Origin: Parcubacteria group bacterium GW2011_GWD2_42_14
Lineage (GTDB): Bacteria > Patescibacteriota > Minisyncoccia > Phycocordibacterales > UBA12088
Assembly: GCA_000998045.1 (NCBI GenBank)
Contig: LCCS01000007.1
Span: forward strand, 5,220-69,219
DNA length: 64,000 nt
Direction: 5' to 3'
The notes under the pieces were generated by a model. That model did not search any database, was not told the DNA's origin, and was given only the letters and a program-made list of their open reading frames with translations. Below are positions 22,900 through 60,149 of the stretch, in pieces. How positions within the stretch are numbered: position 1 is the stretch's first letter; the number at the start of each line of letters is the position of its first letter. The position numbers were made by a program, and so were the translations under genes.

Positions 22900-22901
22900 T
22901 C

Positions 22902-24218: not shown

Positions 24219-24336
24219 AGGTATATTGTAGCGTATCTACGCAAAAAACTAGCATTTAAAGGTGTGTATAGAGTGGGCAAATTTGAAATTTGAAATGAAT
24301 CCCGTTAAAGATCCTGCCATTTATGTAAGTTCTGAA

Positions 24337-24547: not shown

Positions 24548-24556
24548 TTTCTGAAA

Positions 24557-29221: not shown

Positions 29222-29270
29222 GTATTAACTCAGAACTCGTCACTCGTCACTCGCTTTACTCTTATTTAGA
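29222..29270. repeat. ACTCG-repeat cluster (GAACTCGTCACTCGTCACTCGCTTTACTC) just 3' of the giant gene stop. Preceded by an ACTAGTA-repeat/near-palindrome ACTAGTATACATACTAGT (~29185-29215).
   Basis: Shares the ACTCGCTTTACTC core with 15141-15200 (reverse complement) and 63497-63523. Confidence 0.35.
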
Positions 29271-32200
29271 ACACTGGCAATACAATATATACAATCTTAC
29301 TCTCATATATACCTGCAGGCTGACCTTCACCTGCGCCTATTCTATATATAATGTCTGTTGTTTCATCATGTACAGGCCCCGAGCTATAGGCTATTTCTTC
29401 AAGTGTCTCCGTAAGTGGCGCAAACGTGTCATTAAGTAAGAATCTTGTTGAACCTCCTGTAAGGGTATTATCACCAGCATGATACCCATAGCAACTTTGT
29501 GCTGTTACCAAACATCCCGTCGTCCACGGTACCGGCGAGCTGTTTGAACCTGCAATATCCTCAATTCCTACCCCTCCACTACTCATAAGGTTTTGGCGTT
29601 CATACGCCACCACCTGATACCCTTCGGTCGCGTTTGTGGTAACAGTTAACCGTTGCACTGCTTCCTTCGGTACACCAAGCTCAAGTACCCCAAACGGTAT
29701 CGAAGTTGCCGAAGTTTCCACATCAGCAACATATCCTTCGGTTGAAAATCCAGCGGTGACACCTTGAATTGAGAAACTTAACGTTGCACCCTCGGTTGAA
29801 AGCGAAGGATAACTTGTGAGTGTTGTGGAAGCAGTAACCGGGGTATCACGTTCTACATCATATAGTCTAAAGAAGTACGTCATATTATTTCGTGCGTTGT
29901 TGTGCTGTAGGGTAAATTCAAACTCCTTTTTTGTGACGTTGGTGAATACGAAGCCTGAGTCGCCTGCACGATACAATACACCTCCTGTAGCATGTGCAAG
30001 ATATGCAATTACTTCAGAGGTGTGGGTGAGCTCTCCATCGTCACGCTCATCAATAGCAAACTGAGCCGAATCTGCATCAACATTGCCATAACGTACCCAT
30101 CCCCCTTCGGCACCATTGCGCGTCTGCTTATGTGCAATAATCCCGGGAATACCGATAAACAACTGTGTAAACGCTTGTTCGTACCATGGAATATCTGCCC
30201 ATCCAGTAATGGACTCCGTTGTGGTCGTCGCCTCAAATGCAATGCCGTTGTTGGTAAATACACCTCCTTCAATGGCGATCCAGCCTATGGTCTCTGTATT
30301 TGTGGGTTCCGCCGTTTCACCGTCAGGTACCTCTATTGAACAAGCAAAAGTATTCGCATTTGGCAAGGCGATAGAAGTAGTCAAGAAATCAGGTGAATTT
30401 GTGTTGTTGTTGGTCTGCAATGAGGTGAGTATGACCGGCGTACTCGAAAATGTCTGTGTAAACGTACACGTATCATCTGAGGCGCCACTCACCGCATTAC
30501 CATAGTAGTGATTAGTATCAAGTGTATTTACATCTACTTTTCTTCCATCAGGAAGGGTATACGACCCACGCTCCATAACTATGTATGACAACAATTCCTC
30601 CCCGTGAGTGTCGGGCTCATTGTCCGGCTCTTGTATACGGACCGTAAAACTTGAGGTGGTGGTACCCGTGATAATCGCCACTGCCGGTCTATTCAGTGCA
30701 CCACCTCCCGTATCTCCAGAAATCGCTTCAACAATAAAGACAGGATCGATGTAGGTATGTGCAAGAGTTACTGTTGTTCCTACACTGTCCGCAGTCGTCG
30801 TTCCTACTTCACCAACGACTTCCGGAGTATATGAGTACTCATTGTATGTTCCACATCCGTCCCCTACTCCTCCTACGCAACTATCGGAAGTGGCGAGTAC
30901 TGCTTCGTCAATAAACTCTCCTTCCGCACCTGCTCCATCCGCATAGCACCACGGGGAGCTTGTAGTACAACTATCTCTATCGGTCACATCAGTCACCACA
31001 CTAAAGTCAGAAAATTCTGACCACTGAAGTTTAAATTTCGTATTACCTCCATCACGACCTGCAATCTCTTCCACCAGCACCCGTAGCTTGAGAACTTCCG
31101 CTTGTGGAATATTGGACGGCGCAGTATTAGTGGCTGCTAGTGATGAAACGGGCGTGACTGCGGTCTCATCGTCATACCATCGCCAGTCTTTTTGTTCTGT
31201 ATCAAATCCTGCTATGGTGATAGTGGGGTAGTAGAGGTACTCATCAAGTTCACTACCATCTGACTCAACCATACGGAAACAGTAGCTCGAAAAATCTACC
31301 ACCCCATTTGCCTCAAGTATCCAATCATACTCAACATCATCCCCGAAATATATTTTGTAAGGATTGAGTGCTGTTGGGTTCGCTTCTTCATATGTTCCAG
31401 CACGACTTGAAACAGAAAGATTTAAATCACCTACTGTTGGAGGATTTGTTGAGAGAGTCGAACCACTGAGCGGAGTAGCATTATATCCACGCCACAGTAC
31501 GGTTGTTGAAGCAGAATCTCCCGTGTCTAGCCATGTACTTATTGCGGAACATGCCGTATCACGAGTACCGTACTGTAGCTTGTACTGTTTTGTTCCTTGA
31601 GAGATGTTTGCACCAGAAACAGAAAGCGACATGCGTACGCGCACCCTATCTCCATCGGAAGGTGCCATATCAAGTCCTGTAATCGTGGTGTTTTCACCCA
31701 AATCAGCCACACCTAACGGCCATGGATCGGTTGGGTCAAGAGTGTCATTGTCAACGTAAAATCGGAAATAGTTTTGACTCACCTTCAGTACCGCTGTCGG
31801 CCAATCCACGACTTCTGTGCGGTATGCACGGCCAGTACCAGTGTCTGATATCCAGAGTTGGTAGAACGTGGTAGAGGTGATACCCGCCCCCATAATTGCT
31901 CGAGGATGCACCGTGTCAGTACCAAGTCCCCACATGTTCATAAAAATGGAACCATTTGAGAGTGATGAAAGTGTTCTACCTATCGCAATCGAATACGTTG
32001 ATGGCTCAACACCTCCAGCGTTTTGTGTCGCATTTGACCGTGCAACTACCATCGGGCTACCAGTAATTTGTGTGTTTTCAATAACCCACGCTACCGAAGT
32101 ATGAGAACTAGCAGTCCTCACGGTCCCTGGAACACTATATGCAACTTGCCCAACACTGGAGAGCCAAACCTGATGCCCGTACTCATCAACACGGTTATCT

Positions 32201-35200
32201 ATCACTCGTTTTTGCGTATGCAAAAAAGCACGTGACAAATCATTAACTGGTGTAATATTTTCAACCTCGGTCGCTCCCGGGGTGTTATACGTATGTTCAC
32301 TGCGCTGAGTCTTCCAGTTATCTCCAGTAAACTCTACAATTGCATAACTTACCACCGAAGCAACTGAGCCAGTTATACCTCGGGTAAAGGTTGCATCATC
32401 TGATCCACTATTCCATACAGCAGTTGAAAGACCTGCAGGATAGCCAGTCGAGTTAGCCGAAGGGTTCTGCTGACCTGTGATAAACACAACAACATCATTG
32501 TCGTTCGCCACATCTTCTATAGTCGGCGTTGTCACCGTCGTGTTCGCTGAACCATATATTGCATTTTCTTGCGCTCGTACAATCATTTCATTATCTCCTC
32601 CTGCAGGTCCTGTATACTCGATAATTTCCCAGTAAATACGAGTCGAATTTGTTATACCGGTACGTTGGAACGTGACACTGTTTGTAATGTTACTTGGATT
32701 TTGGATACTTGTGGTTACATTACTTGCATTTTGGGTTCCACCTCCCGACGTCGCTCCTGCGCCGGTATGCGAAGCATTTGTGATACGTATAAATGCACTC
32801 GTACTCGCTTTCGGTGCAACATACTCGACACCTGCAGTGATAGTGACCGAGGAAGTGGTGTTTGCAATGTCGCTCACCCCACGTTGAATGTAAAAGTCCT
32901 GATTGGTACTCACCACAGCTTCTGCATATGTCTCGTAGGCCAGTGCCCCCTCCTCGTCTCTCACTCTAAAACAGTATGTCGTACCTGCTGTCGCGTCTAT
33001 GTTTGGCTCAATAACGTACTCAAGTTCCATAAACTCATCCGGTTCGAGTGTAAGGATATCGCTCACTGCAGTGTTTTCAATAACACCGCTGTTTGGTGTC
33101 AAGAAAATCGCGTTTTCGTCAGACACCCCACCAAGTGCAGCTGCAATGTTAGTAGTATCACTGCCTGCAGTCACCTCTTCAGACTCCGAAGGACTCCAGA
33201 CAGCGCCCGTTGAACCCACAGTCGCCCACTCTGAGATTGCACTACACGTCGTCACTCGTTCTGCGTATTCAAGAGTAAACACAGAAGGGTCAGAGCTCGT
33301 TGCACCTTTGTTACTTACTGCAAATCGAAGTCTTTCGACGACACCTGATAACGCTCCCGTAATCGGGACATCCTCAACTCCACCAGTTTTTGATGTTGCG
33401 AGCGACTCACTGCCATCGTCATTCCTAAAATGGTAGTGCTCCAAAACCAATAGCGATTTTTCAATAGTCGTTGAACCAGTGGGACCAACAGGATAGCTTG
33501 GGTTTATCGTACCAGTGGACACCGAGACATCAGTACTTGGATTCGCAATTGATATTTGAATGGTTTCGAGGTTCCCTGCATCAGAATCAACGTCCATTAC
33601 GGCATACACACATATAGCAAACGAATCTGTAATACCCACAGTTTCAGTGAAGGTTATAGTACCATTAGCACTTGAGAAACCATTCACAGCAGTCGATCCA
33701 TACTGTTCTTCATTTCCATCATAACTTTCACTTGCGCACGTATACGGACTTGATGAATCAAGCTCGTACAGCAATTTTATGTTTTTGAGATTGTTTTGTG
33801 CATCTACGGTTCCTGTTTCGCTAAGTATGATGGAGTTCACATCACGAGGGCCAGAGAAATCTTGCAACACCAACGTACCTCCGAGGTAGTTGTTTGTTGA
33901 ACTTGCTTGTACCGCTTCAACATGTGCGCCTTGAGCTGAGACAAACACATCAGACATCATGGCCACTTCAGGAAAAGTATTGTAAACCGGAAGTGCAGTG
34001 CCACTGTCTGTAACACGAAAACAGTAGCTACCTCCATCGACAGCGCCAGCAAGTGCCACAACAGAATACTCAAGTTCTACAAACTCATCCGGTTCGAGAA
34101 TAAGCGCACCTGTCTCGCTCGTTGTGTCACGCACACCACCGTTTGGAGTGAGAAATACTGCATTTTCATCAGTCACTCCACCCGTAGCTTCTCCTATGTT
34201 GGTCGTCGAATTTCCTTCAGTAAGGTTTAACGAGTTATACATATCCCACGCACCATCCACGGAGGCTACGTTCGTCCACCCTTCTGTCGTTGCGGAACAA
34301 GTCCCATTGAGTAGAGCATACTCAAGACGAAACGTGGTAGCAGTCGACGCCGAAATACCTTCGTTTGACACCTGCACACGTATACGTTGCGGTGACGCTT
34401 CAGGGAAGTTAGTCAACACCGTATCTTCATTGCCCTCTGTCGCACTTCCCGCTCCCGACTCACTCCCGTTGTCTAAACGCCAATGATAGTGTGTCTGTGT
34501 GAGAAGTGGTGCGGTGAGTGTTGTTGTATCTGGAATTTCAAGTGGTTCAGATTGGATAAGCAACAAATCTCCTCCACCAAGCACCACATCATTACCCGAG
34601 GTAATTTGAAGCTCAATCGTTTCTCCAGAAAGAGCGTTTGTGGTGACATCCATGATGGGATAGAGACACACTGCTTGTGTACTTGAAGCGGAGACTGCTC
34701 CTGCAAACGATGCGGTGCCGTTTGCACCACTGAAACCATCCGCATCGGTCACCCCATACTGCAGTTCACTGCCTCCGTAGCTTTCACTTGCACAGTCATA
34801 GGGTGCGGTTGTATCAAACTCATAGAGTAGTGTAATGTTATCAAGACTATTTTGTGCATCTACAGTTCCTGTTTCAGTGATGGTAACATCAGTTACCGTA
34901 TGGGTTTCTACACTACCATTATCTACTATAACAAAAGCCCCACCAACATGTTGGCTCACGCTCGGAATCGTCATTTCCGCAACCTGTGCTCCTGTTGTTG
35001 TCGCAAACGCATGTATCCTATAGGTAGCCTCTGGGTACCGAGGGTACTCGGACAGTGGTGCGCCTTGGTCGGAAACACGGAAACAATACTGCGTTGTGTC
35101 GATAGCAAATGAGGTTGGACTAATGGCATACTCTAGTTCAAGAAAATCTGCTCCATTAACAGTCAGCATCCCTGTCTCATCTCCCGTATCAAGTACGGCT

Positions 35201-38200
35201 CCATTGGGGGTAAGAAAATGTGTGTTCTCATCAGGTACACCACCCTCCGCACTCGCAATGTTCGTCGTATTTTCCCCATGGGTAAGGTTCAATGAGTCGT
35301 ACATATCCCACGCACCACCGGCTTCACCGACTCGCGTCCACGTCGACACATCACCACAACTCGTTACTTTTTCACCGTACTCAAGACGAAAAGCTTTCGC
35401 GTTGGTGTTGACCTCTCCTTCGTTTGAAACTTCCAGACGGAGTCGGTACGGTCTTCCCATTTTCGTACTCGACAACGGGGTATCCTCTACTCCACCTGTT
35501 GCCGAAGTCGCCTCGGCTTCATTCCCATTGTTTTCCCGCCAGTGGTAGTGAACCTGGTGCAAGATACTTTTCTGCCACGCTACATATCGGTAGTTGTTGA
35601 TGCCGTTTGCGTTCGTCTCAGCAGCACTTCCCAGAGAAAAACCATTAAAAGTTGTTCCTGTAATTGCGCCGGCAACAGAGCCACTATTGATAAAGGGAAG
35701 TGCTCCATCTCCAACTATGTCAGAAAATCGCCATACACCTTGTGTTGCAGTCGTGCGTTTTATCCAAAGATGAAATGGTTGAAAACCAACAGTGATGTCT
35801 TGACTGGTGCCGTTACCGCTGTATGTTCCAAGTGCAAACGTACTTGATGTTGCAAATCCAAAATACCAATACATGTTTGCAGTAGCATTTACGTTTGAGG
35901 CGTTACCAACCTGAAAACCATCTGTGTTTAAAGTCTGAATTAAATTCACTCCATCAAGTGTCGCGGTAAAGTAACTTGAAAGATCTCCCGTGTGTTCTGT
36001 TGAACGCCACACACCGCCACTCACCCCATTATTCTTTATGGTGAGCATGTCTGGACTGAAAGGTAAATGTGTAATACTGCGATTATCAATTCCATTGCCG
36101 TAGTACGCACCAATAACAAAATCCGCTGCGCCAGAGTTGGTATCCGGATTCCATGCATTTCCAAACGCCGTCCAGTAGTACGTGACCCCGGGGGTATTAA
36201 CCGTTGCGTCGGTACCAATAGAGAAACTTTCCGATTGTAAGGAGGTAATACCTTCTGCGAAGTTTGCGTTTGGTGAATCAAGGTACGCGGTTGAATTTCC
36301 ACCCATAATCCTTGTTGAAAATACTCCTGCTTGTGTAGTGTTTCCTTTAATTATTACCAGATCTGGTTCAAAGCCAAGATCAGAAAATACGAGCGTGTTC
36401 CCTGTACCAACATATGAACCCGAATTCATCTGGTACGTGCCGTTTGCAACGTGAGGAGTAGCTCCACCAAAGGCAGCGTAGTAGTGCGTATTCCCGTTTC
36501 CGTTTGCTGTGTTGCTCGTTCCTACTTGGAAGCCGTCAGATTCCAGAGCCTGTACTGCATTTATCAAGTTCGCCGTATCGGCAAAATAGCTTGAACTGTC
36601 TCCATAGGATTCATTGAGCGAGTGGACTGCACCCACTGCAACATTTGCGTTTTTAGTAAATAACCAATCAGGGCGGAAACCGACACTTCCGATGCTTCTG
36701 TTATCGCTCGTATTTCCGGCATACGTACCTACATCCACTTCTCCTACCGATTCTTTAAACGTGGCAAAGTAATATATACCTGCATTCACGTTGTGCGTCG
36801 TCCCAACTGTAAAACCATTTGCATCTAGGGTCGTAAAGAATGTCCCTGTGGTATCTTCTACTGTTGCGGAAAAATACTGGGCATAGTTGACTGGCATCAC
36901 ACTTGAGCGCCACGTGGGGAGAACAGCGGTAGAGCGCTTCACCCACACCAAATCTGGCTGAAATCCAGAAGGGATGGCCTTCGTCGCACCACCGTCTCCT
37001 GTGTAGCGCCCTACACAAAAGGTCCCTCCCGAAGAACACTCAGATCCACTAAATGCAACCCATGTAAAACGATTGTTTAAATCATTAATTCCTGTTCCTG
37101 CTACACGAAATCCATCATTGGTTAACACGATGAGTCCTGCCGCATTGTCAGCGGTCGCACTCCCGAGGTAGGCAGTGTTGTTTTGGGGCATGGCCACGGT
37201 TTTCCAAACAGCACCCGTTCCGGCTGTGGTGTTCGCTTTAACAATTACCATGTCAGGAGTAAAGCCAAGTCCGCTTATCTCCTTCACTCCTCCATCTCCA
37301 ACGTAATATCCTGTTTGCGTTTTGTATGTTGCGGTACCACGGCTTGTAGTATCAGCCCACACTACATATCGGTAGTTATTAACCCCAAGTGTGTTTGCTT
37401 CCACCCCCGTCCCCACTGAAAAACCGTTCGCATAAAAACCAGTGAGGGCGTCCTGCACCAACGCAGTGTTTAAAAAAGGAAACGACGTCGCTCCTGTGGT
37501 ACTCGCCGTACGCAGAACCCCTTGTACTGCACCAGTTTGCTTCACCCATGCATGGTCTGGCGCGAAGCTTGTATCGACATTGTGTGCCACGCCGGTACCG
37601 CTGTAGGTACCTACTGCAAAGTTTGTCCCTGTTGCAAACCCGAAGTACCAATATAAGCTGGCTGCAGTATTCACGTTCGCAAGAGTACCTATTTGAAAAC
37701 CATCAACGGTTAAACTTTGAATTTGATTTGCACCATCGGCTAATGCATGAAAATAACTTGATACGTCACCAACATGCTCGCTTGAACGCCACACAGCTTG
37801 CGTAGCACCACTTGTCTTTACTGTTAGAAAATCAGGACTGAACGGTAAACGAGTAATACTTCTGTTGTCTAACCCATTTCCATAGTAGGCACCAATAACA
37901 AAATCTTGCGACCCAGTATTTGTCTTGGGGTTCCAGGCATTGCCGTACGCAGTCCACACATACTCGACACCATTTGTGTTGACGGTTGCATGACTACCAA
38001 TCGTAAAGCCGTTAGGTGAGAGCGTTGTGATACCTCCCGCAAAGTTCGCGGTTGCAACACCGAGGTATGCTGTGGAATCACCCCCCATCATACTTGTTGA
38101 GAACACCGCTTGTTCCGTAGAGCTTGCTTTCACAATGACTAAGTCTGGTGCAAAACCAAGATTCGATATAACTCGTGCATTACCATCTCCAACATAGGTA

Positions 38201-39267
38201 CCCGAAACTGCTGTAAACGTCCCTTGAGCACTATGGTCAACAGCACCACCAAAGGCAGCGTAGTAGTGCGTATTCCCGTTTCCGTTTGCGGTATTACTAG
38301 TCCCTACTTGAAACCCGTCAGATTCCAGAGCCTGTACTGCATTTATTAAGTTCGCCGTATCGGCAAAGTAGCTTGAGCTGTCACCGTAGGATTCGTTGAG
38401 CGAGTACACAGCACCCACCGTAGCATTGGCGTTCTTGGTAAACAGCCAGTCGGGACGAAAGCCAACATCAGGAATGCTTCTGTTGTCACTTGTATTTCCA
38501 GTATAGGTACCAACATCGATAACACCCGCCACTTCTTTAAATGCCATGTAGGAGTAAATACCCCCAACAGCATTGTTCGTCGCACCTACACTAAACCCTG
38601 TTGCGTCAAGTGTCGTAAAATATGCACCGGTGCTGTTTTCGAGAGTCGCTGAGAAAAATTGAGCGTAATTGTCTGGCATACTACTTGAGCGCCAGTTTGC
38701 CAAAACAGCTGTTGATTGCTTCACGATGACCAAGTCGGGGTCAAACCCTGTCGGTACCGCCTGAGTCGCGTTACCGTCACCTGTATATCTCCCCACACAT
38801 AGTTGTCCACCAGCACTACAATCAGAACCAGAAAACGCCACCCATGTGTAACGGTTGTTAACCGTATCGGAAAGTGTACCTGTTACGATAAAACCGTTTG
38901 GAGTAAATTGTATTTGAGCCGTGGTATTGTCTGCTGTTGCAACACCCAAGTACGCCACATTATTTTTTGGCATACCAATAGTTTTCATAATAGCGCCCGT
39001 ACCCCCTGCGGTGTCAGCTTTCAGTATTACCACCTCGGGGGTAAACCCAAGCCCGGAAATCTCATTTGAAGATCCGCTTCCCACATAATAACCCGTCTGC
39101 ATCTGGTAGGTAGCAGCTACTACGCGAGTGATGCCGAGGAACCGTGCTATTGGATTATGGAAAACAATTATAAGCACAAGCAGAAGTACCCCCAAGAGAA
39201 GCACAAAACGCCTCACAAAGAGGTGTTGCCATATACGGGATAGTTTGTGAACAATAAACTCCTTCAT
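29266..39267 (-). CDS. Giant repeat-rich surface protein (3333 aa). N-terminal TM/signal, ~95-aa G-x-Y-x-G-x-G...GF-x-PD...W(R/K)SS modules with a recent internal duplication, three ~350-aa HYHWR-type repeats, and a C-terminal beta-rich region.
   Basis: Continuous ORF with N-terminus MKEFIVHKLSRIWQHLFVRRFVLLLGVLLLVLIIVF. The stretch VGFRPDWLFTKNAN..VG.AV.SLNESYGDSSSYFADTANLINAVQALESDGFQVGTSNTANGNGNTHYYAAFGGA occurs twice (near-identical DNA at ~36460 and ~38260). The HYHWR(E/L/N)..G.E ... FRLEY ... AWDMY.SLNLT.G..TTNI ... DEN..FLTPN ... YCFRV block occurs 3 times. Confidence 0.75.
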   Translation of the reverse strand: MKEFIVHKLSRIWQHLFVRRFVLLLGVLLLVLIIVFHNPIARFLGITRVVAATYQMQTGYYVGSGSSNEISGLGFTPEVVILKADTAGGTGAIMKTIGMPKNNVAYLGVATADNTTAQIQFTPNGFIVTGTLSDTVNNRYTWVAFSGSDCSAGGQLCVGRYTGDGNATQAVPTGFDPDLVIVKQSTAVLANWRSSSMPDNYAQFFSATLENSTGAYFTTLDATGFSVGATNNAVGGIYSYMAFKEVAGVIDVGTYTGNTSDNRSIPDVGFRPDWLFTKNANATVGAVYSLNESYGDSSSYFADTANLINAVQALESDGFQVGTSNTANGNGNTHYYAAFGGAVDHSAQGTFTAVSGTYVGDGNARVISNLGFAPDLVIVKASSTEQAVFSTSMMGGDSTAYLGVATANFAGGITTLSPNGFTIGSHATVNTNGVEYVWTAYGNAWNPKTNTGSQDFVIGAYYGNGLDNRSITRLPFSPDFLTVKTSGATQAVWRSSEHVGDVSSYFHALADGANQIQSLTVDGFQIGTLANVNTAASLYWYFGFATGTNFAVGTYSGTGVAHNVDTSFAPDHAWVKQTGAVQGVLRTASTTGATSFPFLNTALVQDALTGFYANGFSVGTGVEANTLGVNNYRYVVWADTTSRGTATYKTQTGYYVGDGGVKEISGLGFTPDMVIVKANTTAGTGAVWKTVAMPQNNTAYLGSATADNAAGLIVLTNDGFRVAGTGINDLNNRFTWVAFSGSECSSGGTFCVGRYTGDGGATKAIPSGFQPDLVWVKRSTAVLPTWRSSVMPVNYAQYFSATVEDTTGTFFTTLDANGFTVGTTHNVNAGIYYFATFKESVGEVDVGTYAGNTSDNRSIGSVGFRPDWLFTKNANVAVGAVHSLNESYGDSSSYFADTANLINAVQALESDGFQVGTSNTANGNGNTHYYAAFGGATPHVANGTYQMNSGSYVGTGNTLVFSDLGFEPDLVIIKGNTTQAGVFSTRIMGGNSTAYLDSPNANFAEGITSLQSESFSIGTDATVNTPGVTYYWTAFGNAWNPDTNSGAADFVIGAYYGNGIDNRSITHLPFSPDMLTIKNNGVSGGVWRSTEHTGDLSSYFTATLDGVNLIQTLNTDGFQVGNASNVNATANMYWYFGFATSSTFALGTYSGNGTSQDITVGFQPFHLWIKRTTATQGVWRFSDIVGDGALPFINSGSVAGAITGTTFNGFSLGSAAETNANGINNYRYVAWQKSILHQVHYHWRENNGNEAEATSATGGVEDTPLSSTKMGRPYRLRLEVSNEGEVNTNAKAFRLEYGEKVTSCGDVSTWTRVGEAGGAWDMYDSLNLTHGENTTNIASAEGGVPDENTHFLTPNGAVLDTGDETGMLTVNGADFLELEYAISPTSFAIDTTQYCFRVSDQGAPLSEYPRYPEATYRIHAFATTTGAQVAEMTIPSVSQHVGGAFVIVDNGSVETHTVTDVTITETGTVDAQNSLDNITLLYEFDTTAPYDCASESYGGSELQYGVTDADGFSGANGTASFAGAVSASSTQAVCLYPIMDVTTNALSGETIELQITSGNDVVLGGGDLLLIQSEPLEIPDTTTLTAPLLTQTHYHWRLDNGSESGAGSATEGNEDTVLTNFPEASPQRIRVQVSNEGISASTATTFRLEYALLNGTCSATTEGWTNVASVDGAWDMYNSLNLTEGNSTTNIGEATGGVTDENAVFLTPNGGVRDTTSETGALILEPDEFVELEYSVVALAGAVDGGSYCFRVTDSGTALPVYNTFPEVAMMSDVFVSAQGAHVEAVQASSTNNYLGGTLVLQDFSGPRDVNSIILSETGTVDAQNNLKNIKLLYELDSSSPYTCASESYDGNEEQYGSTAVNGFSSANGTITFTETVGITDSFAICVYAVMDVDSDAGNLETIQISIANPSTDVSVSTGTINPSYPVGPTGSTTIEKSLLVLEHYHFRNDDGSESLATSKTGGVEDVPITGALSGVVERLRFAVSNKGATSSDPSVFTLEYAERVTTCSAISEWATVGSTGAVWSPSESEEVTAGSDTTNIAAALGGVSDENAIFLTPNSGVIENTAVSDILTLEPDEFMELEYVIEPNIDATAGTTYCFRVRDEEGALAYETYAEAVVSTNQDFYIQRGVSDIANTTSSVTITAGVEYVAPKASTSAFIRITNASHTGAGATSGGGTQNASNVTTSIQNPSNITNSVTFQRTGITNSTRIYWEIIEYTGPAGGDNEMIVRAQENAIYGSANTTVTTPTIEDVANDNDVVVFITGQQNPSANSTGYPAGLSTAVWNSGSDDATFTRGITGSVASVVSYAIVEFTGDNWKTQRSEHTYNTPGATEVENITPVNDLSRAFLHTQKRVIDNRVDEYGHQVWLSSVGQVAYSVPGTVRTASSHTSVAWVIENTQITGSPMVVARSNATQNAGGVEPSTYSIAIGRTLSSLSNGSIFMNMWGLGTDTVHPRAIMGAGITSTTFYQLWISDTGTGRAYRTEVVDWPTAVLKVSQNYFRFYVDNDTLDPTDPWPLGVADLGENTTITGLDMAPSDGDRVRVRMSLSVSGANISQGTKQYKLQYGTRDTACSAISTWLDTGDSASTTVLWRGYNATPLSGSTLSTNPPTVGDLNLSVSSRAGTYEEANPTALNPYKIYFGDDVEYDWILEANGVVDFSSYCFRMVESDGSELDEYLYYPTITIAGFDTEQKDWRWYDDETAVTPVSSLAATNTAPSNIPQAEVLKLRVLVEEIAGRDGGNTKFKLQWSEFSDFSVVTDVTDRDSCTTSSPWCYADGAGAEGEFIDEAVLATSDSCVGGVGDGCGTYNEYSYTPEVVGEVGTTTADSVGTTVTLAHTYIDPVFIVEAISGDTGGGALNRPAVAIITGTTTSSFTVRIQEPDNEPDTHGEELLSYIVMERGSYTLPDGRKVDVNTLDTNHYYGNAVSGASDDTCTFTQTFSSTPVILTSLQTNNNTNSPDFLTTSIALPNANTFACSIEVPDGETAEPTNTETIGWIAIEGGVFTNNGIAFEATTTTESITGWADIPWYEQAFTQLFIGIPGIIAHKQTRNGAEGGWVRYGNVDADSAQFAIDERDDGELTHTSEVIAYLAHATGGVLYRAGDSGFVFTNVTKKEFEFTLQHNNARNNMTYFFRLYDVERDTPVTASTTLTSYPSLSTEGATLSFSIQGVTAGFSTEGYVADVETSATSIPFGVLELGVPKEAVQRLTVTTNATEGYQVVAYERQNLMSSGGVGIEDIAGSNSSPVPWTTGCLVTAQSCYGYHAGDNTLTGGSTRFLLNDTFAPLTETLEEIAYSSGPVHDETTDIIYRIGAGEGQPAGIYESKIVYIVLPVF

Positions 39268-43287: not shown

Positions 43288-43755
43288 TTACTTTTTTGTT
43301 GAAAGTAAATCGCGAATTTCAGTAAGCAACTGTTCCTGTTTTGACAGTATAGCTTTTTCTTCTTCTTCAGATTCTTTCTTCAGATTCTCCTCTTCTTTTT
43401 GAGCTTTTTTAAGAGTTTTAGCAATAACCAAATCTTTTTGTTTTTGAATTTCATTCATACCTTTCACAACGAGAAAAATGACAAAAGCCACTATGAGAAA
43501 GGTAATAATTGAGTTTATAAAAAATCCATACTGTACCGTTACCGCAGGAGCATCATTCACCGATTCTTTCAACGTCCATCGTAAATCACTAAAATCAATT
43601 CCTCCTGTAATATACCCAATCACGGGCATGATAATGTCATTCGTGAGCGAAGTGACAATCTTACCAAAAGCACCGCCCACCACCACAGCAACTGCCAAAT
43701 CAACCACATTGCCTCGCATGGCAAACTGCTTAAATTCTTCTAGAAAGTTTTTCAT
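43288..43755 (-). CDS. mscL: Large-conductance mechanosensitive channel MscL
   Basis: MKNFLEEFKQFAMRGNVVDLAVAVVVGGAFGKIVTSLTNDIIMPVIGYITGGIDF closely matches the MscL N-terminus; second TM and charged C-terminal helix present. Confidence 0.85.
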   Translation of the reverse strand: MKNFLEEFKQFAMRGNVVDLAVAVVVGGAFGKIVTSLTNDIIMPVIGYITGGIDFSDLRWTLKESVNDAPAVTVQYGFFINSIITFLIVAFVIFLVVKGMNEIQKQKDLVIAKTLKKAQKEEENLKKESEEEEKAILSKQEQLLTEIRDLLSTKK

Positions 43756-43873
43756 CCCGTTAGAGACAGGTCACGAAGTGACCGTCGGTTAGTCTAATAA
43801 ATATCATGTATATTCTGTTTTTCCTTTCAGTACACATTACTCTGTTTATTACATATGTATCGTCTCTACGGGA
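43756..43873 (-). repeat. ~118-bp MITE-like / conserved 5'-leader element copy 1. 12-bp terminal inverted repeat TCCCGTTAGAGA...TCTCTACGGGA, internal palindrome GGTCACGAAGTGACC. The left end abuts the mscL ATG.
   Basis: The conserved block CATCCCGTTAGAGACAGGTCACGAAGTGACCGTCGGTTA is shared with 51127-51165 and 52474-52512. AT-rich interior with TATCATATTCT / CTTTCAG.ACATTAC similar to copy 2. Confidence 0.55.
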
Positions 43874-44090
43874 TAATTTTTAATTTGAAATTTTTAATTT
43901 TTAGTGAATGACACAATGTTTTAATTTTTTTCTCGATTCTTAAAACACTTTTTAATTTTAAACATTAAAAATTCATTACGAATTGTAAATTAAAAATTTT
44001 AAATTATCTGTCGGTATTTTCATTATATACACTATCTCATAGTGGCTTACATGACAAATTAGGTTACACTGCTCTATAAGATCTATCCAT

Positions 44091-49562: not shown

Positions 49563-50279
49563 ATGTTGAAACTACATGTGAGTGAGTCGCCAATGGACGA
49601 AGCGGGAGACGCGCTTGAGAAAGCTCTTGAGGAACAAAAAGATAAACACATTTTGCTTCTTTTTTCTGGAGGTAGCGCGATAACGCTTGTGAACTACCTG
49701 CATGCAAAAATTCTTTCTTCACACCACACCATTTCTGTACTTGATGAAAGGTATACCTTTGATCAAGACGAAAGTAATTTTTCAATACTGGAACGAACTT
49801 CTTTTTTTTCACAAGTAGCGGAGCTTGGTGTCCCTGTTCTTGATCCTCGTCCTCGTGCAAACGAAACACTTGAAGAAACAGCAAAACGTTTCGATCTTGC
49901 GCTTAAACATTGGCATATTAGTCATAGAGACGGGGTCGTACTTGCCACTATGGGTATTGGACCTGATGGCCATACATCAGGGATTCTTCCTATGCCTGAA
50001 AATACCAAAGATTTTGAAAAACTGTTCCTTGATGAAAAAAAATGTGCAGTTGGATATGAGTCATCACCAGAGAAAAACCCATATACAAAAAGAATTACTA
50101 CAACAGTTACGTACCTTACGCGACATGTCGAACAAGCAATCGTCTTTGCGTCAGGTGTGCCGAAAAGAGAGGTCCTTCAAAAAATAGTTGCAGGAGAAGG
50201 AGATATTGCGTCCATACCCGCTATGGTTCTGCAACAAATGAAGCATGTTGATTTGTATACTGACCTGTCACTGGCATAA
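49563..50279 (+). CDS. pgl: 6-phosphogluconolactonase
   Basis: LLLFSGGSA and MGIGPDGHTSGILP (6PGL/NagB-family motif). Start at ATG 49563 right after the gnd stop; the upstream part of the track ORF overlaps gnd. Confidence 0.7.
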   Translation: MLKLHVSESPMDEAGDALEKALEEQKDKHILLLFSGGSAITLVNYLHAKILSSHHTISVLDERYTFDQDESNFSILERTSFFSQVAELGVPVLDPRPRANETLEETAKRFDLALKHWHISHRDGVVLATMGIGPDGHTSGILPMPENTKDFEKLFLDEKKCAVGYESSPEKNPYTKRITTTVTYLTRHVEQAIVFASGVPKREVLQKIVAGEGDIASIPAMVLQQMKHVDLYTDLSLA

Positions 50280-51129
50280 AGTGCTGTTGATATTTTCTTT
50301 GTAGCATCTCACAAATTGCACCTGCCACATTAATCTGTGTCACCCTTTCAAAAGTGCGAAATTGCGGTGACATGTTTACCTCTATGCGATAGTACGTGCC
50401 TTCGTGCTCCAGTAAATCAACTCCAGCGACGGAGAGTCCTGCTACCTGTGTCGCGTGTACGGCTAGGTCGATAGCTTGCTCTGGAAGCTCTACACATTCT
50501 CGCCTCCCTCCAGCTCGCACGGTAAGAAAATCTTCACCTTCGTTGTATCGCTTCATTACTCCAAGAGCAACCCCATCTATAACTATCACTCGATAGTCAA
50601 ATTGGATGGGGATATATTTCTGTAGAAGTATAGGAAAATTAAAAGTCTGAATAAAATCATCCAGCCCACTTCTGTTGTGCAACAACCGCACCTTTATACC
50701 CATACTACCCTCAAGACTTTTTGCAATGATAGGGTACTCTAGGGCATTGAGTACATTGCGGTGAGAAGAAAAAATAAGCCGATAGTCAAGTACTGGTATC
50801 CCATCATCCACCATAGTCGGTAAGAACTTATCAAAATAGGTTGCGCGGGTTGCAAATACATCTTCAACGATCACCTTGTTGTGCTTACGTAGATAATTTG
50901 CAATAACTGCCATTTCACTCGCAAGTTCGCCCAAACCACGAAAAAAATACACATCGTACTCAAGAATATTTCTACCATCATTTGCGGTTACCGAAGTTTG
51001 GTTATTAGTTACGGAAAAAATAACATCAGTCGGTGATACCATTTCAAATTGCAAACCTCTCTTAAAAAATTCTTCTTGCAGTCTTGTTGCTGCATGACAT
51101 TTGGTATTACCAACAAGGAGCGTTTTCAT
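50221..51129 (-). CDS. ATP-grasp family protein (RimK/glutathione-synthetase-like)
   Basis: ATP-grasp fold features (…IIAKSLEGSMGIKVRLL…, DYRVIVIDGVALGVMKR, GVDLLEHEGTYYRIEVN). Confidence 0.55.
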   Translation of the reverse strand: MKTLLVGNTKCHAATRLQEEFFKRGLQFEMVSPTDVIFSVTNNQTSVTANDGRNILEYDVYFFRGLGELASEMAVIANYLRKHNKVIVEDVFATRATYFDKFLPTMVDDGIPVLDYRLIFSSHRNVLNALEYPIIAKSLEGSMGIKVRLLHNRSGLDDFIQTFNFPILLQKYIPIQFDYRVIVIDGVALGVMKRYNEGEDFLTVRAGGRRECVELPEQAIDLAVHATQVAGLSVAGVDLLEHEGTYYRIEVNMSPQFRTFERVTQINVAGAICEMLQRKYQQHFMPVTGQYTNQHASFVAEP

Positions 51130-51247
51130 CCCGTTAGAGACAGGTCACAACGTGACCGTCGGTTAAATTAGTAATTTTTGGCATATGTATCATATTCTAT
51201 ATTTGAAACTACTTTCAGAAACATTACAGTTTTGGTCTCTAACGGGA
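51130..51247 (-). repeat. ~118-bp MITE-like / 5'-leader element copy 2. TIR TCCCGTTAGAGA...TCTCTAACGGGA, palindrome GGTCACAACGTGACC. It abuts the ATG of the ATP-grasp gene, and its right TIR contains the TAG stop of gene 51239..51643.
   Basis: Direct read. Confidence 0.55.
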
Positions 51248-51643
51248 CTCATAACAACTGCGTGACGCAAACACTTCTTGAGGCGTGGGACTTACACCTC
51301 CTTTGATTTCAGCTACTCGGGCAGAACCAAGTGTCGCAACAAAACAAGCTTCCATTTCAGGAGTGAGGGTACTTGGAAGTGATTCAGGGTTAATACCTAT
51401 TGCCCTAAGAGCAGATTCTTGCTCTGGGGAAAGCTTTGAATTTTTCTCAAGTGAAGAAGTTTCTGTATTGTCACCAGTAGGCCGAGCTTGCTGCTCCCCG
51501 GAAAATTCCGAGTCTGAAGTCATGAGTGAGATAAGCGGGCGAACATTAAACGGGTCTGCAAACCAAAGGTACGCAAGTACACAGAGAAGTATAAAAAAGA
51601 TAACTCCAAGCGTGGTAAAAAAATAATTGAAAAATTTCTTCAT
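51239..51643 (-). CDS. Small membrane-anchored hypothetical protein
   Basis: N-terminal TM FFTTLGVIFFILLCVLAYLWF; no motif. Confidence 0.45.
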   Translation of the reverse strand: MKKFFNYFFTTLGVIFFILLCVLAYLWFADPFNVRPLISLMTSDSEFSGEQQARPTGDNTETSSLEKNSKLSPEQESALRAIGINPESLPSTLTPEMEACFVATLGSARVAEIKGGVSPTPQEVFASRSCYESR

Positions 51644-51717
51644 TTTGACAGAGACAGATTATATGTATAAAAAGCTTGTCTAAGCAGTAGTAGTACTACC
51701 AAAAACACATGTGCGTA

Positions 51718-52476
51718 CTATACACTTTTTTTACCTTTCGTGTGGTACGATTTCCACGCATAGAACACCACCGCAGAACTTGAAGCAACGTTCAAAGATT
51801 CCACTTCTTTCTCAATAGGTATGGAGAGTCGGAAGTCACACACATCTTCAGTTTTTTCACGAAGGCCTTTGCCCTCATTCCCAAGCACAAATACTGATGG
51901 TTTTGTAAAGTTTTCATCAGGAATACTTGTATCACCATCTCCAGCAAGTCCATATATCCAGAAACCTCGTTCCTTCAAATCACGCAATGTTGTGTTAACG
52001 TTTCCTATCGTCACCAAAGGTAATGCAAACGCCATGCCAGCAGACACTTTCACGACCGTGCCAGTGACGGGTGCTTGTCGGTACTCAGGTATCAAAACGC
52101 CTGAAATGCCGAACGCTGCAGCGTTACGTATCACTGCTCCGACATTATGAGGATCAGTAAGCTCGTTAAGTACGACAAGTGCAGTAGTATCCGTAATAGT
52201 AAGACCCTCAATAAAAGGTTTATATGGTTTGAGTATTTTGTTGGGAGAAACACGAGCCACCACACCTTGATGTACTGCATCCTTACCCACATCCCGAGGA
52301 AGGTGATCTTCATCACATCGGTCAAAAGTAACGGACAGTTCTTCAACTTTCGCTCTAATTTTTTCTGCCTCACGTCCACCGACAAAATAGACATGCTGTA
52401 CAGTCTCTGGTGCTCGGGTAAGTGCCTCAAAAACAGCATGCGTACCGAATATGTAGGTTTGATCTCTATTTTTCAT
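51718..52476 (-). CDS. rlmB: SpoU/TrmH-family RNA 2'-O-methyltransferase (RlmB-like)
   Basis: SpoU motifs LVVLNELTDPHNVGAVIRNAAAFG, VFVLGNEGKGL, LNVASSSAVVFY. Confidence 0.7.
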   Translation of the reverse strand: MKNRDQTYIFGTHAVFEALTRAPETVQHVYFVGGREAEKIRAKVEELSVTFDRCDEDHLPRDVGKDAVHQGVVARVSPNKILKPYKPFIEGLTITDTTALVVLNELTDPHNVGAVIRNAAAFGISGVLIPEYRQAPVTGTVVKVSAGMAFALPLVTIGNVNTTLRDLKERGFWIYGLAGDGDTSIPDENFTKPSVFVLGNEGKGLREKTEDVCDFRLSIPIEKEVESLNVASSSAVVFYAWKSYHTKGKKSV

Positions 52477-52595
52477 CCCGTTAGAGACAGGTCACGAAGT
52501 GACCGTCGGTTAAACTGATAATATTTGTTTCCTGTACGTTATTCATGATACTTTCTGTAGGTGTGTTCTTCTACGCTTTCTCGTCTCTAACGGGA
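52477..52595 (-). repeat. ~119-bp MITE-like / 5'-leader element copy 3. TIR TCCCGTTAGAGA...TCTCTAACGGGA, palindrome GGTCACGAAGTGACC. It abuts the rlmB ATG.
   Basis: Direct read. The adjacent 52600-52770 spacer carries TACCGAGTTTGCGAG / TTACCGAGTCGCGG repeats, a CCCGCCGTGGCGGG hairpin and an 18-bp perfect palindrome GTTTAAGTGCACTTAAAC (~52748). Confidence 0.55.
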
Positions 52596-52768
52596 TTCAT
52601 GATTGTATAGGTAATCCCAGGACACCTGTAATACCATACAAACGAGTACAACGCAATCAAAACCGTAGTACCGAGTTTGCGAGCCTGCCCGCCGTGGCGG
52701 GTAAAAGTTACCGAGTCGCGGAAAATCTGCATAGATATGCGACAGCATACGTTTGAGTTTAAGTGCAC

Positions 52769-56571: not shown

Positions 56572-56815
56572 CCTTTGTTAATTTTCCTTATTTCTAGAAC
56601 GTACCCATCCTGTCTGTATTATATCACTATATATAGCATTATGTCAATGCATTTTGGGTAAAATACCCATATATGTAGAGCTAAATTATGAAGTGTAAAG
56701 TCAAAAGTAGTAAGCTCATATAATACAAGTTTTTGTTTTTTGCTCACGGCTCTCGGCTCAAGGCTAATACCCCGCCATAGCGAGACAAGCTTTCAACTTT
56801 CAAGTCTTTGTATAA

Positions 56816-56937
56816 AGGACCTACGCAAGCGGATGCAGTTCGAGGCGCGCAAACAAAATACTACGAGGCGTATTAGGTATACGATGAGGAGTATTTTGTG
56901 CAGCGCAACGATGAAATGCGCCGTTTGCGTAGGACCT
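56816..56937. repeat. Structured intergenic element copy E (short form). Outer inverted repeat AGGACCTACGCAAGCGG / CCGTTTGCGTAGGACCT. Its 3' arm overlaps the TAG stop of the ABC-F gene.
   Basis: Core ATGCAGTTCGAGGCGCGCAAACAAAATACTACGAGGCGTATTAGGTATACGATGAGGAGTATTTTGTGCAGCGCAACGATGAAATGCGCCG; inner stem ACAAAATACT/AGTATTTTGT. Confidence 0.6.
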
Positions 56938-58414
56938 ATTTCTTTTTTTTATCGAGGTCGATAGTATCGTCGATACGAATTTGCGCCACAAACTCAGGGA
57001 CGTGAGACACAAGGAGCATAGCCCCTTCATACGAGTCGAGTGCCTTTGCTATCACAGGAATATGTCGGAAGTTGATATGATTGGTTGGCTCATCAAGAAT
57101 AATAAGTCCGGGTTTAAGCAAAACGAGTCGAGCAAACGCCACCAATCCTTTTTGCCCTTCAGAGAGAAGTCCAATCTTCGTGTTAATGATATCACTCGTT
57201 ATTAAAAACCCCGCTGCTGTTGCGCGCATGTCTTCTTGGAATTTTTCCTCCATTACCGACATAAGACAATCATAGACGGTCTGATCAAAATCGAGGTTTG
57301 AAAAATCTTGTCGGTAGTACCCTATCTTTACACCCTGCGCCACCATTTCCCCCTTTGCATGTCCTTTGGCAAGCGACTCGAGAAGTGTCGTTTTCCCTAT
57401 ACCGTTCGGTCCTACGATTTGAAAGTGTTGCCCCCTTTTCAAGACTACATCACATTTGACCTCTTTAGGAGTGTGGTCGCGAATAACGGTATACGACGTA
57501 AGCCGTAAAATCTCTGAGGGTATGTCCTGTTGGACCGGTATTGTAAATCGTCGAATCGCTCGGTCTTCTTTTCGCACCTCTACCTTGTTCTCCTCATGTT
57601 CTTCCACTTTCTCTCGCATCCGTTTGGCAACGAGACGCATCCCCCCACCTTTATGTGCAAAGAAGTTTGCTTTATCTTTGTTTGCCTGAATCTCCTTTTC
57701 CAATTGCGCATTCTTCCTTTTTTCTTTGAGTACGCGAGCAGCTATTTCCTCGACAACGTCATGATAATCGCCTTCGTACCGTTCGATGGTGTGCATTTGT
57801 TCATTCAAGTACAACACGCCGTGAGTAAAAGCATTCAAAAAGTCGGCATCGTGTGAAATGACAATCACGGTCTTTGTGTATGTCTTCAAAAACTCAGTGA
57901 GATGTTCTATCCCAGCGCTGTCTAGGTTGTTGGTTGGTTCATCGAGCAATAGCACATCTGGATTTTGGATAAGCGCGGAAGCCAATAGGAGACGTGCTTG
58001 TTGTCCTCCGGAAAAACTCCCAACTATTCTATCTTTGAACGAGTCACGTACTTTAGGATTCTTGGGTAAAAGATTCACTACCTCAAGTATCTCGTCAATT
58101 TTTGGATCAATGTTGTACACTTTTTCAGGAAAGCATGCTTCAAAAAATTCTCGCACTGAGAGGAGAAGCTCGTCTCGTGGTATCACTTGCCGTGAGATCG
58201 CAATACTGGTATGTGGCATAACATTTACCTTTCCTTCATCGGGCTTATATAGCCCTCCTATTAGGCCAAAGAGCGTGCTCTTACCTGCACCGTTTTGCCC
58301 CATGAGAGTAAGCTTCGCTCCACGTCGAATAGAAAAACTTGTCTCAACAAGAATTGGTTTATGCACACTATGTTCGAATGACACGGTGTCAAACGATATA
58401 AGTCCTCGAGGCAC
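56936..58414 (-). CDS. ABC-F family ATPase (two ABC domains, no TMD), EttA/Uup-like
   Basis: Domain 1: MGQNGAGKSTLF, LSGGQQARL, LLLDEPTNNLD. Domain 2: IVGPNGIGKTTLL, LSEGQKGLVAFARL, IILDEPTNHI. GTG start at 58414. Confidence 0.8.
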   Translation of the reverse strand: MPRGLISFDTVSFEHSVHKPILVETSFSIRRGAKLTLMGQNGAGKSTLFGLIGGLYKPDEGKVNVMPHTSIAISRQVIPRDELLLSVREFFEACFPEKVYNIDPKIDEILEVVNLLPKNPKVRDSFKDRIVGSFSGGQQARLLLASALIQNPDVLLLDEPTNNLDSAGIEHLTEFLKTYTKTVIVISHDADFLNAFTHGVLYLNEQMHTIERYEGDYHDVVEEIAARVLKEKRKNAQLEKEIQANKDKANFFAHKGGGMRLVAKRMREKVEEHEENKVEVRKEDRAIRRFTIPVQQDIPSEILRLTSYTVIRDHTPKEVKCDVVLKRGQHFQIVGPNGIGKTTLLESLAKGHAKGEMVAQGVKIGYYRQDFSNLDFDQTVYDCLMSVMEEKFQEDMRATAAGFLITSDIINTKIGLLSEGQKGLVAFARLVLLKPGLIILDEPTNHINFRHIPVIAKALDSYEGAMLLVSHVPEFVAQIRIDDTIDLDKKKK

Positions 58415-58435
58415 ACTCTATCAACGGTGTGCCAA

Positions 58436-58545
58436 AGTTGAATGTTAAAAGTTGAAAGTTGAAAGCACTTTTTACGCAAGCCCGCATATGCGGGCTTGCG
58501 AACTTTTAACTTAGTACTTTCAACTTTTAACTTGGTGAGAGTTGC
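58436..58545. repeat. Hairpin element: perfect GC hairpin GCAAGCCCGCATATGCGGGCTTGC flanked by inverted AAAGTTGAA-type repeats, in the divergent spacer between the ABC-F and Nudix genes
   Basis: Same build as 18137-18250. Confidence 0.45.
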
Positions 58546-59783: not shown

Positions 59784-60149
59784 ATATATACAACCTTAAA
59801 CACTGGGTAAGTAATGCGACTGTAAAACTTCTACAGGATTTTATTTTAAGACTTAAGCAAATGGATGTAGTTCTAGGAAAACAAACAAAATGGAGTAAGC
59901 TGTACTCGTTGTACAGTGAACGACATTTTGTGCCACTATGCTTTTTTGTCTTTCTTTGGTTTCTTTTTCTCTTTTCGCGCGTCTTTTCCTTTAGCCATAC
60001 TTGTTATTACATTACTGGTACACGTATATTCTACATTCTACCTCACATCACCAGTGAAGAACTAGTGGAGAATATCTCCTCAGTGTTCATTCTCGCCCTC
60101 GTCTGCAACTCTTACTCGAAACTTCATACTTCTTTGCTACAGTCAAAGC

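Follow-up and report, generated by a model that had tools for sequence, protein, structure and literature searches.

Short repeats at start codons in a Parcubacteria genome: probable miniature derivatives of a mobile element encoding a GIY-YIG protein

Results

Three copies of a short element adjoin start codons

We analyzed a stretch of 64,000 nucleotides from Parcubacteria group bacterium GW2011_GWD2_42_14 (contig LCCS01000007.1, positions 5,220 to 69,219; hereafter the window), which contains three copies of a short element bounded by terminal inverted repeats (TIRs), each directly upstream of a gene. All three copies are on the (-) strand and match a profile of the family. Copy 1 (43755..43873) precedes the MscL gene (43288-43755), copy 2 (51129..51247) precedes a gene encoding a RimK-like ATP-grasp protein (RimK ATP-grasp, 50221-51129) and copy 3 (52476..52595) precedes an rlmB-type SpoU methylase gene (51718-52476), with the three gene products being identified by Pfam. 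The element had been noticed in a preliminary description made from the sequence alone, and its claim of three copies whose conserved block ends at the ATG of mscL, the RimK-like gene and rlmB holds in all three cases. The 19-mer CCCGTTAGAGACAGGTCAC and the palindrome GGTCAC-N3-GTGACC each occur three times in the window, versus 0.03 and 0.12 times expected from shuffled sequences, and nhmmer searches with the family profile gave exactly these three matches (E-values 5e-31, 2e-28 and 1e-23). The identity between the copies runs on through the start codon, as far as ATGAAAA. The exact mscL protein of the window is also encoded on GCA_003518505.1 and on metagenome scaffolds from the Rifle aquifer.

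Related copies precede unrelated genes in the same lineages

Counting copies genome-wide, as the preliminary description had suggested, revealed many more than three: the metagenome-assembled genome (MAG) of Parcubacteria group bacterium GW2011_GWA2_43_11 contains at least 15. In a scan of species-representative genomes, seven further copies were found, all in this same bacterium. A looser pattern allowing any hairpin returned 41 metagenome loci that, except for three chance matches, belong to the same aquifer lineages. Deduplication left 35 non-identical full copies located before 24 different genes.

The conserved arm of the element abuts an ATG-initiated open reading frame (ORF) in all 35 copies. 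These ORFs have 37-861 codons where they could be read completely, as some run off the end of their contig. The downstream genes encode unrelated housekeeping proteins. Judging by their N-terminal sequences, we take their products to include SecD, the ATP synthase delta subunit (AtpH), ABC ATPases and permeases, a class I aldolase, UvrA, RNase HI, methionine aminopeptidase, an IscU-like protein, RuvC, ribulose-phosphate epimerase and L36. The Pfam scan confirmed only the three genes of the window (MscL, RimK, SpoU); the other names were assigned from the N-termini.

Some candidate loci were rejected. Loci L041 and L049 are GC-rich chance matches, and L039, L045 and L050 correspond to a CRISPR array of an unrelated, GC-richer organism (about 2800-3100 in L039) with the repeat CTTGCAACCGACGATCCGCAGGATAGGATACTGAAAG. 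One spacer of this array starts with GTCTCTAACGGGATGCG, which over 17 nt matches the element end together with a TGCG flank. Viral contigs yielded no protospacer for it, and therefore the match is probably due to chance. Searches of the viral contigs for the element pattern, for the CRISPR-spacer-like sequence and with a GIY-YIG profile gave nothing usable.

Anatomy of the element

Read on the gene strand, the element consists of the distal TIR TCCCGTTAGAGAC, about 65 variable AT-rich nucleotides, the conserved arm ATTAnYARnnT-AACCGACG, a hairpin, the dinucleotide CT and the proximal TIR GTCTCTAACGGGA. Its length varies between 117 and 146 bp, and the TIRs are perfect in nearly all copies. The TIRs are 13 nt long, not 12 bp as first described, with the final A of the proximal TIR being the A of the host ATG. 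In the window, the proximal TIRs are located at 43755..43767 (copy 1), 51129-51141 (copy 2) and 52476-52488 (copy 3), and the distal TIRs at 43862..43873, 51235-51247 and 52583-52595, respectively, all on the (-) strand. The inverted partner that had been described for the far end is thus present in each copy and perfect in copies 2 and 3, but in copy 1 it has a 1-nt deletion (TCCCG(T)TAGAGAC). The distal TIR of copy 2 contains the TAG stop codon of an upstream ORF of 134 amino acids (aa). The interior motifs that had been quoted as common to copies 1 and 2 match only approximately.

The gene-proximal 45 nt are nearly invariant across the copies. The hairpin GGTCAC-N3-GTGACC is located at 43769..43783 in copy 1, 51143-51157 in copy 2 and 52490-52504 in copy 3, all on the (-) strand. 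Other members of the family have different stems in a segment of 15, 18 or 42 nt. The palindrome is replaced by unrelated stems in 10 of the 35 copies (TCCCGC-CAAG-GCGGGG, GGAAACG-TTAA-CGTTTCC or a 19-bp stem), and other copies carry compensatory changes (GGACAC/GTGTCC) or G-U pairs. Overall, compensatory changes affect five pairs, and the G-U pairs are compatible with the sense strand alone. In the predicted RNA fold of the whole element (z = -4.3), the structure is closed by the TIRs, which pair as a 13-bp stem in which the A of the host AUG takes part.

We also screened the element for transcription signals and known RNAs. With regard to the outward promoter that the preliminary description had considered possible, a TANNNT-like hexamer is present immediately 5' of AACCGACG in 21 of 32 copies, but no -35 element was found at a consistent distance from it across the copies. 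The promoter scan gave one CTGAAA-18-TATGAT match, in copy 2, with such matches being no more frequent than in shuffled sequences. A leaderless promoter serving the rebuilt ATG was rejected because the TIR contains no -10 box at positions -12..-7 of the host ATG. The window as a whole gave no Rfam match at the gathering score, and none was obtained for the elements with E-values up to 10 in the region 51050-52700. No tRNA or tmRNA was found by a dedicated scan.

A mini-ORF ends four nucleotides before the host start codon

In 33 of the 35 copies, a mini-ORF of 18-22 codons starts at an ATG located 64-73 nt upstream of that of the host gene and extends across the conserved arm and the hairpin. 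Its stop codon is a TAA in the proximal TIR, separated from the host ATG by 4 nt (CTC TAA CGGG ATG). In the window, again on the (-) strand, the mini-ORFs encode MNNVQETNIISLTDGHFVTCL in copy 3 (52481..52546), MIHMPKITNLTDGHVVTCL in copy 2 (51134..51193) and MCTERKNRIYMIFIRLTDGHFVTCL in copy 1 (43760..43837), where reading from an internal ATG at 43807 gives MIFIRLTDGHFVTCL; the peptide of copy 1 can also be written as M(CTERKNRIYM)IFIRLTDGHFVTCL. The distance from the stop codon to the ATG of rlmB, the RimK-like gene and mscL, respectively, is 4 nt in each case, and the TAA of copy 3 is located in its proximal TIR. The lengths of the hairpin segment (15, 18 and 42 nt) are all multiples of 3. 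Within the variable 36 nt preceding AACCGACG we counted 6 stop codons in the frame of the mini-ORF, versus 50 and 44 in the other two frames.

The absence of a Shine-Dalgarno (SD) sequence from the element, pointed out in the preliminary description, is real but not particular to these genes: the whole window and the related loci contain almost no SD sequences, so that their absence from the element is unremarkable. Among 202 crude ORF calls, 25 have a TANNNT box that ends 7 nt before the ATG, and T is the favoured base at position -1. These features suggest that many mRNAs of this Parcubacteria lineage are leaderless or SD-independent. The context of the mini-ORF ATG (TAGTATC-ATG-A, GAAT-ATG-A) resembles the native start contexts of the genome. 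Translational coupling by termination and re-initiation is a classical, established phenomenon, and the mini-ORF seems rather likely to couple translation to the host gene in this way.

Flanking repeats, empty sites and turnover

The preliminary description had called for target-site duplications and for orthologous loci to be inspected. At 12 of 24 independent sites, the 4-nt flanks (TGNN) on the two sides of the element are identical, whereas 4.8 were expected (P~1e-5); this test used one representative per gene and took its expectation from shuffled left flanks. The matching flanks comprise four different 4-mers (TGAA, TGGA, TGAG and TGCG), and several further sites match if the first T of the TIR is counted within the duplication. 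In the window, copy 3 is flanked by perfect 4-nt direct repeats, TGAA, at 52596-52599 and 52472-52475. The flanks of copy 2 are TGAG (51248-51251) and TGAA (51125-51128), and those of copy 1 are ATTA and TGAA.

Empty sites were found at orthologous loci. Relatives L057 (MscL 85% identical) and L059 (76%) keep the gene order DUF5671-rlmB-...-RimK-...-ZIP-mscL, with the RimK-like gene being absent from L059. The element is missing upstream of mscL and the RimK-like gene in L057 and upstream of mscL in L059, and the start codon is the same: the proteins at the empty sites begin at the same ATG (MKN(F/L)LEEFKQF for MscL and MKTLLVGNTKCH for the RimK-like protein). The element is also absent from rlmB in L059, but this does not count as a precise empty site because the N-terminus of the protein differs. 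Likewise, at an ABC-ATPase gene the site is empty in L035 but occupied in L023/L042, and the boundary coincides exactly with the TIRs.

Different copies also occupy equivalent positions. In GWA2_43_11, two copies in tandem are present at the rlmB ATG, and at that of the RimK-like gene there is a copy of a different subfamily with a different hairpin. Similar copies also occur at different genes: in this genome, a copy about 90% identical to copy 1 of the window precedes another gene, atpH. The abutted ends of tandem copies form a 30-nt palindrome. In 9 of the 35 copies, another copy or a decayed remnant is located immediately upstream, which suggests that new copies repeatedly land on the ATG-proximal side.

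We also noted possible remains of the element in the window. A non-coding stretch of 173 nt upstream of copy 3 (52596-52768), conserved in a related genome, contains the family's alternative hairpin, CCCGCCACGGCGGG, and after it a sequence with a loose resemblance to the proximal TIR; this stretch may be a decayed older copy. The TIR-like sequence TGAATCCCGTTAAAGAT at 24296-24312 (+) stands alone, and TATAATCTGTCTCTGTCAAAATG at 51644-51666 (-), before the 134-aa gene, is similar to the proximal TIR. These two sequences may be relics.

A 280-bp element with the same ends encodes a GIY-YIG protein

A scaffold similar to GWA2_43_11 (L055/L056) contains a 280-bp element with the same TIRs before the mscL ATG. 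It reads TGAA-TCCCGTTAGAGACCAAAAG...ORF...CCTGTCTCTAACGGGA-TGAA and is therefore flanked by TGAA on both sides. Its sole gene encodes an 86-aa GIY-YIG protein (PF01541, E=4e-12). The last five codons and the stop codon of this gene (CTG TCT CTA ACG GGA TGA, encoding LSLTG and the stop) double as the right TIR, and the stop codon overlaps the mscL ATG (ATGA). The last base of these elements is an A, which together with the flanking TG rebuilds the ATG. The short and full-length elements have about 21 nt in common at the left end and 16 nt at the right end, and in addition a homologous subterminal arm (TAT ATT ACA AAT CGC in the full-length element, TAT CAA TCT AAC CGA in the short one). Besides this 280-bp GIY-YIG form, no long autonomous element with the same TIRs was found in 434 kb of related loci. 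The search for a transposase or regulator proposed in the preliminary description thus yielded an enzyme gene inside the same ends, but its product is a GIY-YIG nuclease and not a known transposase.

The protein has the motifs, catalytic residues and fold of the GIY-YIG superfamily. Residues Y3, Y5, Y16, G18, R24, H30, E62 and N76, which include the catalytic and active-site positions, are invariant. The AlphaFold2 model has a pLDDT of 92.7, and its closest folds are UPF0213 BH0048 (1zg2), Slx1 and the catalytic domain of I-TevI.

The GIY-YIG family and its ends are conserved across lineages

Database searches with the protein gave 2920 matches, with about 70% identity among Parcubacteria, Nomurabacteria, Omnitrophica, Planctomycetes, WOR-3 and others. 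A search of representatives clustered at 50% identity, for which only counts were obtained (3484 matches at E<=1e-10), added little because the family is too uniform. The plasmid collection gave no match to the GIY-YIG protein, and the phage collection one weak match. In 96 of the 120 best matches, FLSLTG followed by the stop codon is the exact C-terminus, and the invariant KRFLSLTG is encoded by the TIR of the element. In more than 10 gene calls the N-terminus is MNPVRD, MIPVRD or MVPLEIT, as obtained by translating ATGAA-TCCCGTTAGAGAC in two frames; therefore, the left TIR is also conserved at the DNA level.

DNA from six lineages contains the same TIRs. The tips of the TIRs co-vary (GAGAC/GTCTC, GAGAT/ATCTC, GAGAG/CTCTC; T...A versus C...G), so that changes at the non-coding left end are accompanied by changes at the synonymous third positions of Leu82 and Gly86. 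In all four full-length copies from the Candidate Phyla Radiation (CPR), the flanks match and there is an overlap, ATGA, with the following gene. Outside the CPR, the element disrupts a Fic gene and, at three or more positions, genes with an ORF6N domain. Intact ORF6N alleles exist that are 93% identical to the interrupted ones, and the insertions are independent. One exact pair is formed by L100 and L090: GAACT|AATGACT (empty) versus GAACT[TTACCTCG...CGGGGTG]AATGACT (filled).

The interrupted ORF6N-domain genes (L060, L088-L093, L100; proteins P0391-P0460) are from Nitrospirota-like and other bacteria and are disrupted in their C-terminal tail, with the N-terminal parts reading into the TIR (...YLVRD, ...YPVRD, ...DPVRD). 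In L082, the Fic gene is split within its active-site motif. Another lineage contains an 88-bp derivative without an ORF (L072, 389-477), with CCCCGTTAGAGA...TCTCTAACGGGG as its ends and TTGA/TTGA as its flanks. It is located 12 nt inside a called YgjP-like ORF, whose frame stays open through the derivative.

Other repeats and large ORFs in the window

The window also contains a second, unrelated family of intergenic repeats of about 110-130 nt, whose six copies are 69-93% alike (12810-12949, 22774-22916, 24335-24476, 24553-24679, 56813-56939 and 59847-59904). These are internally palindromic (CTACACAAAATACT...AGTATTTTGTTTG, then CCTCGAACTGCATCC). AT-rich intergenic inverted repeats made of AGTTGAAAGTT / AACTTTCAACTT units are located at 18135-18250, 58434-58533 and 43950-43999, and one of them lies just upstream of copy 1. 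A 3333-aa ORF at 29266-39267 (-) has long internal repeats (e.g., 36435-36734 versus 38217-38516) and is followed by further large repetitive ORFs. These ORFs probably encode surface proteins.

Discussion

The short elements as probable derivatives of a mobile element

The preliminary description had left two readings side by side, a miniature inverted-repeat transposable element (MITE) and a conserved leader or operator. The first gains support from the copy number, the flanking duplications, the empty sites and the existence of an enzyme-bearing element with the same ends. The short element has the size, copy number, TIRs, target-site duplication and presence/absence polymorphism of a MITE. 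We consider it likely that the three repeats of the window are non-autonomous, MITE-like derivatives of a mobile element, related to the ~280-bp GIY-YIG element.

How the elements move can be proposed with less assurance. The GIY-YIG protein might itself be the mobilising enzyme, an assignment that we make tentatively. It would act in trans on the ends that both forms have in common (the TIR and the subterminal ATTA..AACCGACG-hairpin) and in this way also mobilise the short elements. Insertion would proceed via a 4-nt staggered break at A^TGNN and would be kept harmless by translational coupling. In the full-length element, coupling would be achieved by the TGA of the nuclease gene overlapping the host ATG (ATGA). 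In the short element, the mini-ORF would take the part of the nuclease ORF, stopping 4 nt before the host ATG. Ribosomes translating this mini-ORF would open the 13-bp stem of the TIRs, in which the A of the AUG is otherwise paired, and would then terminate and re-initiate on the host gene.

Several observations weigh against this interpretation. Half of the sites (12 of 24) do not have a perfect duplication, and in the window, copy 1 has none and that of copy 2 is imperfect (TGAG/TGAA). The near-perfect ends together with the more diverged core could reflect selection in situ for expression of the host gene instead of recent mobility. The Parcubacteria lineage that bears the short elements yielded a single full-length copy, and the window contains none. 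The 86-aa protein has no DNA-binding domain, and no GIY-YIG protein is known to catalyse transposition. Finally, the insertions beyond the Parcubacteria lineage are not confined to start codons; the full-length non-CPR copies (L060, L082, L088) do not have a clean 4-nt duplication, and neither does the L100 versus L090 pair, where the junction seems to be of a different type.

Alternative explanations

Among the alternatives, the one that survives best is a translation-initiation cassette evolved by the host, consisting of a leader and a coupling mini-ORF, that spread by gene conversion or recombination, with the GIY-YIG gene being a mere passenger at one site. It would account for ends and a mini-ORF that are conserved in every copy around a diverged core, and for the different subfamilies found at orthologous ATGs, which could be cassette replacements; moreover, a portable start module could be useful in a genome without SD sequences. 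Nevertheless, we regard it as unlikely. Matching 4-nt duplications of four different sequences are the mark of staggered-cut insertion and not of conversion, and the 13-nt homology at the left end is too short for RecA-dependent conversion. In addition, the GIY-YIG gene is enclosed by the same TIRs in several phyla where the short cassette of this lineage was not seen, and there the insertions interrupt ORF6N and Fic genes.

The second reading of the preliminary description, in which GGTCAC-N3-GTGACC is the site of a dimeric regulator controlling a regulon, fared poorly, and we consider it very unlikely. The palindrome is indeed perfect in the three window copies and next to the start codon, and the gene-proximal 45 nt are almost invariant. 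However, the palindrome lies inside an ORF, gives way to unrelated stems in over a quarter of the copies (10 of 35), and elsewhere tolerates compensatory or G-U changes. The genes downstream (UvrA, SecD, AtpH, RuvC, RNase H, aldolase) are unrelated and do not resemble a regulon, and syntenic relatives possess mscL, the RimK-like gene and rlmB without the element. Neither the flanking duplications nor a nuclease-bearing relative would be expected of an operator.

To an inverton, i.e., a promoter segment flipped by an invertase acting at the inverted repeats, we give hardly any credence. Inverted repeats of 13 bp do enclose an AT-rich segment of about 90 bp next to a gene start, and copy 2 contains the CTGAAA-18-TATGAT match, but such matches are no commoner than chance, the 35 copies, which come from many metagenomes, all face the gene in one orientation, and there is no invertase gene nearby. 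The probability of an integron attC-like site or gene-cassette boundary is practically negligible: although 118 bp is within the attC length range, CTCTAAC and GTTAGAG each match the core sites RYYYAAC and GTTRRRY at 6 of 7 positions, and abutted tandem copies create a 30-nt palindrome, the core-like sites occur in the opposite order to those of attC, the interior is unpaired with no imperfect hairpin, the elements are located 5' of housekeeping genes in conserved synteny, and no integrase gene was seen in any locus examined.

Comparison with known elements

We compared the presumed mobile element with known systems. The Correia/NEMIS MITEs of Neisseria are about 100-150 bp long, have TIRs and a short target duplication, occur in many gene-adjacent copies, are co-transcribed and can alter the expression of the adjacent gene. 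The present element resembles them in its size, TIRs, short duplication and gene-adjacent copies, as well as in the RNA hairpin formed through the TIRs. It differs in landing on the start codon, in duplicating TGNN instead of TA, in its mini-ORF, and in having a GIY-YIG parent instead of one with a DDE transposase.

IS200/IS605 elements encode an HUH Y1 transposase, have neither TIRs nor a target duplication, and have given rise to palindrome-associated derivatives (PATEs). The likeness lies in the single small enzyme gene, the strand-specific subterminal hairpins and the short non-autonomous derivatives; the TIRs, the target duplication and the GIY-YIG enzyme set the present element apart. 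Rickettsia palindromic elements are small palindromic repeats tolerated in or near coding sequences with the frame kept, with which the 88-bp derivative in L072 may be compared; unlike the present family, they are not known to have an enzyme-bearing parent or start-codon specificity.

GIY-YIG homing endonucleases (I-TevI, the Seg proteins of phage T4) have the same catalytic fold and residues and are likewise selfish genes wedged between host genes. The protein described here, in contrast, has 86 aa without a DNA-binding domain, and its element has 13-bp TIRs and duplications, non-homologous locations, ORF-less derivatives and no intron. The copies precede 24 unrelated genes and have no common flanks beyond 4 nt, which is not what homing would produce. 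The closest proteins by sequence (E=1.6e-9) and by fold are the UPF0213/YhbQ-like proteins (1zg2 BH0048, 1ywl EF2693), which are of similar size. The present proteins differ from these in forming a tight subfamily (~70% identity across phyla) with the TIR-encoded KRFLSLTG C-terminus, and the literature searched describes no mobile-element context for UPF0213.

GIY-YIG ORFs have been reported in insertions within CPR rRNA genes that are unlike group I and group II introns and do not have the appearance of classical homing (PMC11270868). No TIRs, duplications, miniature derivatives or start-codon targeting are described for those insertions in that paper, and they may be the same kind of element as the present family. 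A second paper, which like the first touches on CPR GIY-YIG genes only briefly, lists such a gene among those transferred from Patescibacteria (PMC12455944). In the literature that we searched, we found no description of TIR-bounded GIY-YIG elements, of miniature derivatives of them or of MITEs targeted to start codons; subscription journals were mostly not covered, so an earlier description is possible. The ~280-bp GIY-YIG element family is widespread and apparently undescribed.

Implications

Taken together, the 86-aa GIY-YIG gene and the repeats that bound it could represent a novel class of transposable elements in prokaryotes and, at ~280 bp, the smallest known DNA element that is autonomous, characterised by a bare GIY-YIG domain, TCCCGTTAGAGAC-type TIRs, ATG-adjacent insertion with a 4-nt duplication and the handing on of ribosomes to the host gene. 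This is a proposal about which we ourselves are divided, leaning slightly to the side of doubt. If it is true, GIY-YIG enzymes would join the short list of enzymes that move prokaryotic DNA elements, and the full-length element would define a very small self-contained mobile unit. It would also explain the thousands of near-identical 86-aa GIY-YIG proteins in CPR bacteria, Omnitrophica, Planctomycetes, Nitrospirota and other uncultivated lineages, and account for the odd N-terminal extensions (MNPVRD...) and the split ORF6N and Fic gene calls. For annotation, it would mean that the repeat shifts the apparent promoters and 5' ends of housekeeping genes in Parcubacteria. To land on a start codon, rebuild the ATG and couple the translation of the host gene would be a parasite strategy for a streamlined genome with little intergenic space.

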